Shown here piece after piece: positions 3,001-6,000 of a stretch of DNA of 63,284 nucleotides (its first letter is position 1; every line of letters begins with the position of its first letter). The stretch is from a virus (lineage: Duplodnaviria > Heunggongvirae > Uroviricota > Caudoviricetes), in IMG/VR virus record IMGVR_UViG_2877982868_000011; one strand, given 5' to 3'. Position numbers: made by a program.

Positions 3001-6000
3001 ACTGGCGAATGAAGTGGGCGACTTACATCCCGGGGCATCCTGACGCTAATGATGGGTGGATAATTCCTGGTGCGTCGTGGAAACCGTCACACTGGATGCC
3101 GCTACCAGAACCGCCGCAGGAGGTGAACTGATGGAAAATGAAGGCGATAATATCATCACACTGGTGCAGCCAAAGCGCGATGAAGAGAAGCTGCTGAACA
3201 TTACAGTAACTGGCAGAAAAAACTACACACAACAGAGCTGTAAGCATCGGGCCATTGAGGTTCATGAACAGGATCACGTTATCCTGTGCTTGCAGTGCGG
3301 ATGTGTTGTGGACCCTTTTCTGTATGTTCTGCGGTGTGCGAACGATGGTGAGGCTGTGGTGAGAGAGATTAGACAGCTTCATAACAGACACGATCAGCTC
3401 CGAGAATCTGTTGCCAGCCTCGAGCGTGAAGAAAAGAACACCAAAGCACGGTTGCGGGCAGCAAGAACTGCAATACTGTATGCGGAAAATGACCTTAAAA
3501 ATATTGAGCAGAAGGTGAATCAATGACCTGGCCTGAAGCATTCGCAAATGTAGGAACAGTAATGGCGGTGGTGCTGGTTGTGTATTCGATTTGTCGCTGG
3601 AGATAAAAACGGTTTGCGGGAAAAGGAGAGTTAAGTAGAATTGCTGCGGGTGCTTGAGGCTATCTGCCTCGGGCATGAACACCAACGGCAGATAGAGAAA
3701 AGCCCCAGTTAACATTACGCGTCCGGCAAGACGCTTAACATTAATCTGAGGCTCAATCCATGCTGAACACATGTAGGTTAGCCTCTTACGTGCCGAAAGG
3801 CAAGGAGAAGCAGGCTATGAAGCAGCAAAAGGCGATGTTAATCGCCCTGATCGTCATCTGTTTAACCGTCATAGTGACGGCACTGGTAACGAGGAAAGAC
3901 CTCTGCGAGGTGCGAATCCGAACCGGTCAGACGGAGGTCGCTGTCTTCGTAGACTACGAATCTGAGAAGTAAGAGACCAAGCGGGGGAGTAATCTCCCGC
4001 CACCTCTGATGTGTCAGGCATCCTCAACGCACCCGCGCTTTACCATACTGAAAATGCTGTTTGAATGTTCATCTCTGAAAGAGGACTATGAATGAAAAAG
4101 GTATTGATTGCAGCACTTATTTCTGGTGTGTCTTTTGGCGCTTTTGCACAGCAGGGCGGTTTCCAAGGGCCTGAAGCAGAGCGTTCAACAGTAGCGCAGG
4201 CAAAAGAACTGAAGGATGATGCATGGGTTATCCTTGAAGGGAGCATCGTTAAAAAAGTGGGTGATGAACGTTATGAGTTTCGTGACAATAGCGGGACAAT
4301 TGTCACGGATATCGATGACAGCATATGGGCCGGTCAGAATGTTTCTCCGAAAGACAAAGTAAGAATTGAGGGTGAAATTGATAAAGACCTGAGCAGTGTT
4401 GAAGTGGATGTAAAGGCACTGAAATTATTAAAGTAACCGTCCCAGCTTGCTAAGCCCGTCTTACTGACGGGTTTTCTGTTTGTTATCACAGTATTTTTCA
4501 ACAAAACACCGAATCTTATCCGGTGCGCTGTAAAACCCCGTCCTTCAGGGCGTGGAGGATGTCAAATGGCGTATATTTGGATATAAGAAAGCCATCCAAT
4601 ACTGGCTGAAAAAACTCCTCATCGATATCATCGTGGGCCTGAATAGTTCCATCCGCAATTCTGATTGCCGGTATTGTTCCCCGGCGATAAGGGGTGAACA
4701 TCATCCCGGTTACATCAGATCGCCTAATAACATATCAAGATTATTTTGCTCATAAATGCTATTCGCCATTACCGTTGCTGCTTCAGCTTAATGAAACGCA
4801 TAGATCCGCCATGCTTTTTCAGCAAATACGCTGCCATTTGCGCAACTTTTTCTTCATTAAACATAAATCGGCTCTCTGTATCACATGAAATGCTCTTCTG
4901 ACTATATGTTAATAGCTCCGGTTATTACAGGTCAATGAGTGTTTATTTCTTAATCAGCCCCGCACTTCCGTACGGGGCCATTTCTGTTAATCCACTCCCA
5001 CTTTTTTGTTGTACTCGCGGTTAAACCGATCCACGGCAATTTTCATATCCCGCTCTACCGATTTCACCATCGCCGACTGTTGCGCCAGACTGAGAGTACT
5101 GTCGGCGTAAATGGCATCACGCTGTTTACGCAAATCCTTCAGTCTCTTCCGGGTATCCTGCATAAGCCCGTTCATCGACAATTTTCCGTTGTTCTCGTCA
5201 ATGAACGCCGTTCTTTCTGCACCGGTCAGACTCTTCAGCTCTGCGTGATACTGCGCAATCTCTGTCATCCGGTCGTACATCTTCTGCTGGTCTGCATACG
5301 GCATCACCTCCCCCGAAATTTTCCCCAGGAAGGGCACCTGCTGTTCCGGTATATCAATACCATTCAGCGATTTCACCGCCGCATCCGTGGTTTTGGAAAT
5401 GAAGCGCCCTGTCCCTCCGGAGATATAGTCAATCCAGAATTTCAGCGATTCCGGTGTGATATCCACCGCGCCGGGACGGTACTGGCTGCCACCTGAGAAC
5501 GCATTCAGCCAGGATGCAAACGCCTTGTACGCTTCTGGCGTTGAACGTCTTCCCAGCTGGCTGTCAGGTTTTGGTGTACCAAACGGCATGTTCTCCTGGT
5601 AAATCTGCGCCCCCATGAAGTTTTCATTCATGGCAAGGTTCGCAAACGGACGCAGAATGGTCGGCGCTGCATTTTTCAGCAATGCCCCGGACAGTGTTTC
5701 CGACGTCTCACTGCCAATCGGGCTGAATGCACCAAGCACACCACCAACAACATTACCGGCAGCACGGGACGCCGTCAGGTCACCCGCCGCCACACCTTCA
5801 GCAGTATGCCCGAGCAGGAAGAAAACGTTGTACCCGTAAGGCAGAGGAATACTCCAGTACTCTCCGGCCTTGCCCCCGAACACCGATTTCATAATGACGA
5901 GGTTACGCTCTTTCACATGAGACGGCACCTTGTCATACCAGTTAACCCCGTCATCATCCTCACCCGCCACGCTGCGGTTAAGCGAGCCAAGCAGATAACC

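Follow-up and report, generated by a model that had tools for sequence, protein, structure and literature searches.

The window (the whole stretch of DNA analysed here, 63,284 nucleotides of the Caudoviricetes record IMGVR_UViG_2877982868_000011 in IMG/VR) carries on its plus strand a 51-amino-acid toxin gene, hokW (3817-3972), which is preceded by a Shine-Dalgarno (SD) sequence, AAGGAG (3802-3807), and lies in frame within a longer, 70-amino-acid reading frame, mokW (3760-3972). The SD of mok, GAGG (3748-3751), precedes the ATG at 3760 by 8 nt and lies in a region covered by the antisense RNA sokW; both this SD and the ATG are invariant in 15/15 homologues. The Pfam family HOK_GEF (PF01848; cut-off 22) matched the 70-aa frame with 81.1 bits and the 51-aa frame with 79.8 bits (E = 4.3e-23), spanning profile positions 1-42 of 42; the NCBIfam Hok subfamily model gave 53.6 bits, which is under its strict cut-off of 73. 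A first-pass annotation, made from the sequence alone, had proposed a Hok/Gef toxin at 3817-3972 nested in a mok-like frame starting at 3760, and both proposals agree with what is on record: the 51-aa product is toxic on expression (PMC8621323), and the longer frame is annotated as mokW in phage 933W.

Comparison with phage genomes revealed that window positions 3560-4060 are 100% identical in DNA to phage 933W and to VT2-Sakai/Sp5, and that the annotated mokW, hokW and sokW are found at 100% identity in AF125520 and 43 other phage records. The 933W and Sp5/VT2-Sakai modules have the same genes at the same coordinates, with no difference in the locus itself, and the window also shares their flanks (L0139 upstream and the YgiW-like L0136 downstream). 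The locus almost certainly belongs to a Stx2 prophage of the 933W/Sp5 type, integrated in wrbA, and represents its type I toxin-antitoxin module, hokW/mokW/sokW. This module is already known, having been annotated with the 933W genome and functionally characterised in 2021 (PMC8621323). In that study, Takada et al. showed that HokW is toxic and located in the inner membrane, that sokW RNA, detected by northern blot, acts as an antitoxin that counteracts HokW and depends only partially on RNase III and Hfq, and that on treatment with mitomycin C sokW is lost and HokW appears, with the release of Sp5 after induction being about 2-fold higher when the hokW-sokW module is present. Their paper (PMC8621323) makes no mention of mokW, tac, fbi or a terminator.

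The leader of hokW contains the RNA elements of a hok message. Upstream, we placed a putative hokW/mokW promoter at 3613-3641 (-35 TTTGCG at 3613-3618, a 17-nt spacer, and -10 TAGAAT at 3636-3641). A simple sigma-70 scan of the window called neither this promoter nor that of sokW, both being below its 9-of-12 threshold, so that the two were placed by sequence reading, conservation, scan matches in relatives and published mutant primers. The -10 (TA.AAT) of the hokW/mokW promoter is kept in 15/15 homologues, and relatives have at this position a promoter that passes the scan (TTGGCG-17-TAGAAT and TTGAAA-16-TAGAAT). The 5' end of the hokW mRNA is formed by the tac element (GGGUGCUUGAGG; 3648-3659), which is invariant in 14/15 homologues. 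It coincides with the start of the match to Rfam model RF01794 (113.5 bits versus a gathering score of 59; E = 5e-25; full model, 1-157, at 3648-3822); a covariance-model search had been named in the first-pass annotation as a check, and the locus passes it. The model is named 'sok', but its match falls on the sense strand and therefore marks the hok leader, not the gene for the antisense RNA; this sense-strand match is not described in the hokW literature consulted.

Immediately after tac lies a conserved 5' stem-loop (3660-3695) closed by the perfect 9-bp inverted repeat that had been noticed by eye, CTATCTGCC (3660-3668) with GGCAGATAG (3687-3695), which lies within longer, imperfect 20-nt arms (3649-3668 and 3687-3706). 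By itself this repeat is only modestly unusual: about 0.05 perfect 9-bp repeats with a short loop are expected per 501-nt shuffle, and 4% of the shuffles contained one. Taken alone, that figure would leave room for the hokW frame and the hairpins to be chance features of phage DNA. The other evidence rules this out, and we consider it scarcely conceivable: besides the Pfam and Rfam matches (E 4e-23 and 5e-25), the full-length RNA folds with a z-score of -6.3, the stem carries compensatory changes in homologues at two pairs (A-U to G-C or U-A in one, C-G to U-A in another), and related copies are present in 5424/5426 complete E. coli genomes. Further downstream are the ucb, or anti-SD, element (AAGCCCCAG; 3700-3708), predicted to pair with the mok SD in a closed form of the RNA and with tac in an open form, and the dcb element (GCCUC; 3781-3785), which in the open form, as in the Rfam consensus structure, would pair with the mok SD region at 3748-3752.

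On the minus strand, the 71-nt sokW RNA annotated in AF125520 maps to 3768->3698. It consists of an unpaired 5' tail (about 14 nt) followed by a long terminator-like hairpin and a U-tract, and its predicted fold has an energy of -29.9 kcal/mol (z = -4.95). The sokW promoter was read from the sequence at 3803->3775 (-35 TTGCCT at 3803->3798, a 17-nt spacer, and -10 TAACCT at 3780->3775); its hexamers are conserved in homologues, and the primers YO-421/422, used to construct a promoter-less sokW mutant, replace exactly 3774-3780, and that study gives experimental evidence for the promoter (PMC8621323). A Sok-like antisense RNA had been predicted on this strand within 3700-3830, a range that takes in sokW (3698-3768) and also covers its promoter. 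Lack of an antisense transcript and lack of toxicity had been named beforehand as findings that would speak against the module; instead, the transcript has been detected, and the 51-aa frame is toxic and antagonised by sokW (PMC8621323).

On the 3' side, the toxin frame is followed by a GC-rich hairpin (GCGGGGGA-GUAA-UCUCCCGC; 3981-4000, stem 3981-3988 with 3993-4000) that shows compensatory changes at two pairs among homologues, in accordance with the hairpin anticipated after the stop codon at about 3980-4000. We rejected this hairpin as a terminator, as it is not followed by a T-run and the fbi element lies downstream of it. We infer that it would act as a 3'-terminal stem-loop shielding the truncated mRNA from exonucleases, as in R1 (PMC9841398). 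An inverted-repeat search and the fold identified fbi (CCUCAACGCACCC; 4022-4034), which is complementary to tac, forms with it 12 pairs around one bulged C, and is conserved in 14/15 homologues. The first-pass annotation had placed the locus at 3605-3990; each sequence feature that it described is present, but the end coordinate of 3990 is too short, for the functional locus reaches at least to fbi.

Homology with other hok loci stops at about 4046, and the terminator of the family (AACCCGCTTCGGCGGGTTTTT in relatives) is absent from the stretch that follows (4046-4091). A terminator scan found no terminator-like site in 3972-4452, and the fold of 4000-4100 gave a z-score of +0.53, with no stable structure; applied to relatives, the same scan detected an intrinsic terminator located 6-7 nt beyond fbi. 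The next gene on the plus strand (4092-4436) encodes a YgiW/YdeI-family OB-fold protein (Pfam BOF, 113.7 bits; NCBIfam stress_OB_fold, 136 bits), and the first terminator-like site on that strand after hokW is at 4452-4474. Judging from this arrangement, hokW and the YgiW-like gene may share one transcript, and without a terminator after fbi the 3' processing of hokW may differ from that of R1. The missing terminator is not described in the hokW literature consulted.

We then compared the pairings in the full-length RNA with those in the truncated form. The full-length minimum free energy (MFE) structure closes 5' to 3', with tac paired to fbi and 3701-3708 paired to 3746-3753 (ucb with the mok SD); forcing tac to be unpaired costs about 16 kcal/mol. 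Among 15 homologues, including R1-type hok, the tac/fbi helix was paired in 96% of the alignment cells, tac/ucb in 99% and the dcb/mok SD helix in 100%, and the two alternative sets of helices were both paired in 95-98% of cells versus 40-55% when the partners were slid. The tac/fbi figure includes R1 as 'unpaired' because MAFFT placed the 3' end of the R1-type sequence wrongly; by eye, R1 GGCGCUU pairs with AAGCGCC, and the tac/ucb and SD/dcb helices also pair in the R1-type sequence. Variation within the locus is lowest in its four non-coding elements (tac, ucb, dcb and fbi). Covariation in them was looked for across the 15 homologues and none was found; the columns are invariant, so that support for these pairings comes from conservation plus complementarity rather than from covariation. 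The elements that a hok leader was expected to fold into (tac/fbi, ucb/mok SD, mok SD/dcb and the post-stop hairpin) are all present. When the truncated RNA (3648-4010) was folded, its plain MFE structure was not the open form but one that prefers a 5' 'metastable' hairpin and keeps the mok SD sequestered; a constrained fold placed the open form 1.7 kcal/mol above that MFE. Thermodynamic prediction neither proves nor excludes the tac/ucb/dcb switch.

Among the closest relatives are the hokD (relF) type loci found on prophages and plasmids of E. coli, whose DNA is 86-96% identical to hokW over the whole mRNA, whose toxin is identical to HokW at 47/51 residues, and which share its tac, ucb, dcb and fbi elements. 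They differ from it at the C-terminus (VDYESEK in hokW, TAYEPEE in hokD-type loci) and, as the most variable stretch, at the mok N-terminus, which is also the region of the Sok 5' tail (3755-3775); in addition, the hokD-type relatives have the intrinsic terminator 6-7 nt after fbi that hokW lacks. The hokD copy of K-12 is truncated upstream. More distant is hokC (gef)/mokC/sokC of the E. coli chromosome (about 75% identical in DNA and 40/50 residues in protein), which has mok in frame and the same RNA elements but is located at a chromosomal, non-prophage site adjoining dnaJ; it possesses a terminator of its own, and its Sok-target hairpin is shorter. R1 hok/sok, whose Hok protein is only 44% identical to HokW, has the architecture in common: a hok gene nested in mok, antisense RNA spanning the mok start, closure by tac/fbi, the ucb/dcb switch and the post-stop hairpin. 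The sok promoters have the same layout (TTGCGC-17-TATCCT in R1-type sequences, TTGCCT-17-TAACCT in hokW), and the pair formed by U4 of tac with A in hokW is a C-G pair in R1. R1 differs in having a terminator after fbi, in residing on a plasmid rather than a prophage, and in its proposed role, which is post-segregational killing for R1 and help with lysis for hokW.

Loss of the family terminator might be taken to mean that hokW is a decayed, non-functional relic, like several hok copies on the E. coli K-12 chromosome that are interrupted or truncated. Pedersen and Gerdes in 1999 reportedly thought many chromosomal hok copies to be inactive. Here, however, the promoter, tac, ucb, the mok SD and ATG, dcb, the sok promoter, the hok frame, the post-stop hairpin and fbi each remain intact, and each is conserved. 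Moreover, the cloned locus is toxic and under sokW control, and tagged HokW is produced from the native prophage (PMC8621323). Decay is refuted by these expression and toxicity data, and we regard it as very improbable.

The module lies close to one end of the prophage. The att core TTGAAAC occurs at 523-529 and 62731-62737, delimiting a prophage of about 62.2 kb, compared to 61.67 kb for the 933W record, and hokW is about 3.1 kb from the core at 523-529, at the prophage end distant from int. This is the left end in the orientation of the window, where the toxin locus had been said to lie. The same prophage carries a second Hok/Gef locus on the minus strand (16565-16922), which is unannotated in the 933W record and not described in the literature consulted.

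From the sequence, the folding and the comparison with R1 hok/sok, whose mechanism is summarised in PMC9841398, we infer that hokW uses tac/fbi pairing, a switch involving ucb and dcb, coupling of hok translation to mok, and processing of the 3' end, which would operate as follows. A weak constitutive promoter would produce a stable mRNA starting near 3648. As long as this RNA is full-length, tac at its 5' end would pair with fbi (4022-4034) at its 3' end and the ucb box would hold the mok ribosome-binding site, so that the closed RNA would escape both translation and binding by the antisense RNA. Slow trimming of the 3' end would take off fbi, upon which tac would move to ucb and the mok SD to the dcb stem, making the trimmed message translatable, with hok coupled to mok, and also open to sokW. 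The latter, an unstable 71-nt antisense RNA produced from its own promoter inside the leader, pairs over the mok SD and start codon and blocks expression, partly via RNase III and Hfq. After RecA-dependent prophage induction, sokW is lost, and HokW is made and inserts in the inner membrane, where it slows growth and would aid lysis; phage release is roughly doubled.

The same module could have as its main role not lysis and release but prophage maintenance, by eliminating cells that have lost the prophage, or defence against other phages by abortive infection. The 933W record annotates the module as 'prophage maintenance', R1 hok/sok stabilises plasmids and lowers T4 plating (cited in PMC8621323), hok genes are four-fold enriched in prophages (bioRxiv 10.1101/2025.08.07.668861), and the effect of hokW on release is two-fold only (PMC8621323). 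However, deletion of hokW-sokW had no effect on growth in uninduced lysogens and the appearance of HokW is specific to RecA-dependent induction (PMC8621323). We consider a main role in maintenance or defence a serious possibility, if rather an unlikely one; it is not mutually exclusive with a role in lysis.

A more speculative proposal, which we rate as doubtful, is that the hokW mRNA runs through the YgiW/YdeI-like gene to 4452-4474 (about 830 nt), that its 3' trimming differs or is much slower, and that the second Hok locus is redundant with hokW. If true, slower or different trimming could explain why HokW is kept silent in lysogens until induction, and a redundant second locus could explain why deletion of hokW-sokW merely halves release. 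As a discovery, the hokW locus carries little weight. It is useful as a positive control, in that a reader without tools recognised a real type I toxin-antitoxin module, together with its nested frames and two conserved RNA hairpins. The absent terminator after fbi and the second, unstudied Hok locus could refine the understanding of this module in Shiga-toxin phages.

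Two nested reading frames, a 70-aa frame at 3760-3972 (+) and a 51-aa ORF in frame with it at 3817-3972 (+), both exceeded the Pfam HOK_GEF cut-off of 22 bits (81.1 and 79.8 bits, respectively), matching the first-pass annotation of a Hok/Gef ORF within a longer mok-like frame. Window positions 3560-4060 were 100% identical to 44 phage records, among them 933W (AF125520), VT2-Sakai/Sp5, and Stx2 converting phages I and II. The AF125520 record annotates the two frames as mokW and hokW, together with an antisense RNA, sokW, which maps to 3698-3768 (-), where a Sok-like antisense RNA had been expected on the minus strand (around 3700-3830). 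The molecular identity of the locus as hokW/mokW/sokW is therefore certain, and the locus is already known, being annotated and characterised in identical Stx2 phage DNA; the initial reading of a Hok/Gef type I toxin locus is confirmed as an observation and supported as an interpretation. Related copies of lower identity were found in 5424 of 5426 complete E. coli genomes (median of three places per genome), mostly annotated as hokD (~93% identity) or mokC/hokC (~75% identity). At the protein level, HokW is identical to HokD at 47 of 51 positions and to HokC at 40 of 50, and R1 Hok is 44% identical. Just upstream of the hokW promoter ends a 27-aa hydrophobic ORF (MTWPEAFANVGTVMAVVLVVYSICRWR; 3523-3606, +), for which a Pfam search returned no match; another O157 genome carries an annotated small ORF of 34 codons in a similar position.

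A single prophage, inserted in wrbA, makes up essentially the whole window. The start of wrbA (ATG at 481) and its first codons are followed by an att core, TTGAAAC, at 523-529; a second copy lies at 62731-62737, the integrase gene occupies 61375-62709, and the rest of wrbA follows the second core and int (62706-63284 region). The distance from core to core is about 62.2 kb, versus 61.67 kb for the 933W record. Given the positions of the att cores and int, the hokW locus lies ~3.1 kb from the int-distal prophage end, so that its earlier placement near the prophage left end holds as to proximity, with "left" applying only in window orientation. We also observed a ymdF-like KGG gene at the far left of the window, an Rfam sRNA-Xcc1 match (69.1 bits; gathering score 53) at 938-1026 (+) just inside the int-distal end, and, immediately 3' of this match, an AntA/P22-antirepressor-like ORF (1067-1696). 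Further Rfam matches to AsxR (+), STnc100 (-), three tRNA genes (-) and the lambda cIII thermoregulator (+), with spans of 39403-39662, 41071-41319 and 53778-53836 for the set, are consistent with an Stx2 phage.

Sequence reading and alignments placed the following elements on the plus strand: a putative hok promoter (-35 TTTGCG, 3613-3618; -10 TAGAAT, 3636-3641), an mRNA start at about 3648, the 5' end element tac (3648-3659), a conserved stem (3660-3668 with 3687-3695), the anti-SD element ucb (3700-3708), the mok SD GAGG (3748-3751) and ATG (3760), dcb (3781-3785), the hok SD AAGGAG (3802-3807), and fbi, the 3' element complementary to tac (CCUCAACGCACCC; 4022-4034). On the minus strand, we read a sokW promoter (-35 TTGCCT, 3803->3798; 17-nt spacer; -10 TAACCT, 3780->3775) with the sokW start at 3768, 7 nt past the -10; the promoter-less sokW mutant of Takada et al. 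2021 (primers YO-421/422; PMC8621323) swaps exactly 3774-3780. In its predicted fold (-29.9 kcal/mol, z = -4.95), sokW leaves 14 nt unpaired as a 5' tail ahead of a long hairpin and a U-tract. A covariance-model search for hok/sok RNA, which had been proposed as a check, gave an above-threshold match to Rfam RF01794 ("sok") at 3648-3822 (+), covering the full model (113.5 bits; gathering score 59). Since this match has the sense orientation and the model terminates in the hok Shine-Dalgarno and AUG, what RF01794 represents is the leader of hok mRNA rather than the antisense gene, and its consensus shows that leader in the open form (tac/ucb plus SDmok/dcb). The orientation of a Sok gene should not be deduced from that of an RF01794 match.

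The RNA 3648-4045 was predicted to fold into the closed form, in which the 5' end pairs with fbi, and ucb with the mok SD (-158.8 kcal/mol, z = -6.3; 0 of 100 shuffles folded as well), and barring tac from pairing cost 16 kcal/mol in a constrained fold. In the minimum free energy (MFE) structure of the 3'-truncated RNA 3648-4010, tac is paired to the adjacent downstream sequence, corresponding to the "metastable" hairpin described for R1. The open form is predicted to be only 1.7 kcal/mol less stable than this structure, suggesting that it is accessible, yet it is not the predicted optimum.

We then compared 15 hok loci. Besides that of the window, these were eleven copies of hokD/hokW type taken from phage, plasmid and chromosomal sequences (86-96% identity), the hokD-type prophage copy PPompW, whose leader is shortened, the hokC of strain Nissle and one R1-type hok/sok. 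The closed structure paired 94.9% of cells, compared to 40-49% when the 3' partners were slid by 1-3 columns, and the open structure paired 97.9%, compared to 45-55% when slid. The 9-bp perfect inverted repeat reported at first pass is present as the core of longer imperfect arms (3649-3668 / 3687-3706). By itself this repeat is only mildly unusual (0.05 perfect 9-bp short-loop repeats expected in 501 nt of shuffled sequence); it is convincing because of the comparative data, as two of its pairs show compensatory double changes. The GC hairpin described past the stop was likewise recovered by folding and alignment (3981-4000, +; stem 3981-3988 / 3993-4000), also with compensatory double changes at two pairs. 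When the locus was compared in 15-nt windows, variation was lowest in the four non-coding boxes tac, ucb, dcb and fbi. These showed zero variation among the 15 loci and hence no covariation, so their pairing is backed by conservation and by the complementarity of the boxes to one another. Among transcribed stretches, 3755-3775 varies most; it contains the initial codons of mok and, on the other strand, the 5' tail of sokW. O157 genomes each have 6-9 matched related places, and variation in the Sok recognition tail may confer specificity, limiting cross-talk between the several hok/sok copies that share a cell.

The mechanism of hokW is most likely of the R1 type, for which we follow the RNA-switch model summarised by Le Rhun et al. 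2022 (PMC9841398). Judged from sequence and comparison, the full-length hokW mRNA would be closed by tac/fbi pairing and inert; trimming of the 3' end would remove fbi and open the RNA, making mok and hok translatable and allowing sokW to bind, and sokW would keep expression blocked until its loss following prophage induction.

One feature of hokW in the window differs from its relatives. The hokD-type, hokC and P1-plasmid copies carry a canonical terminator 6-7 nt past fbi (e.g., AACCCGCTTCGGCGGGTT followed by a T-run), whereas hokW does not: homology with the relatives ends at about 4046, within the would-be 5' arm of their terminator hairpin. A copy in another O157 strain that encodes an identical HokW protein retains the terminator; PhiR12_3, like the window, has no plus-strand terminator-like site there. 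Scanning the plus strand downstream of hokW revealed no terminator-like site before 4452-4474 (+), the fold of 4000-4100 showed no significant structure (z = +0.53), and a simple promoter scan of 3400-4500 found zero plus-strand promoter-like sites. Directly 3' of hokW, and upstream of that first terminator-like site, Pfam and NCBIfam profiles identified a YgiW/YdeI-family OB-fold "stress tolerance" gene (4092-4436, +) whose product has a signal-peptide-like N-terminus. As there is no terminator after fbi and none before 4452, the hokW mRNA of 933W-type phages may extend by read-through into the YgiW-like gene, in which case 3' processing would depart from the R1 picture.

A tblastn search with HokW showed that the prophage carries another Hok/Gef-type locus (16565-16922, -), with a 46-aa ORF at 16632-16772 (-) between lom and L0129 (Pfam HOK_GEF: 33.2 bits, E = 4e-8). 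The ORF carries no annotation in AF125520; in RefSeq it is called "Hok/Gef family protein", and it has matches in 1674 of 5426 genomes. Its leader matched RF01794 below threshold (35.6 bits), the RNA 16922->16565 was predicted to close its 5' GGGUGCC onto a 3' GGCACCC (z = -6.6), and a Sok-like promoter (TTGACT-18-TAACCT) is readable on the opposite strand; no mok-like start was found past its GAGG. According to a recent catalogue, two Hok homologues occur in only 3.5% of Hok-carrying phages (bioRxiv 10.1101/2025.08.07.668861). The second locus, the missing terminator and the strand of the Rfam model are minor new points.

Takada et al. 2021 (PMC8621323) studied the Sp5 locus, which is identical to that of the window, and make no mention of mokW, tac, fbi or a terminator. 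In their work, HokW, which was recovered in the inner membrane fraction, arrested growth upon expression; sokW from its own promoter prevented the arrest, mutation of that promoter abolished protection, sokW in trans partially rescued the promoter mutant, and protection was weaker in rnc and hfq mutants (PMC8621323). Uninduced lysogens contained both hokW and sokW RNAs; upon mitomycin C treatment, sokW was lost and HokW-3FLAG appeared in a RecA-dependent manner, about an hour ahead of endolysin (PMC8621323). Deletion of the locus delayed growth arrest by ~40 minutes and halved phage release (PMC8621323). A role in prophage maintenance or in defence against other phages could coexist with help in lysis, and it is help with lysis that this one study supports as the biological role of hokW.
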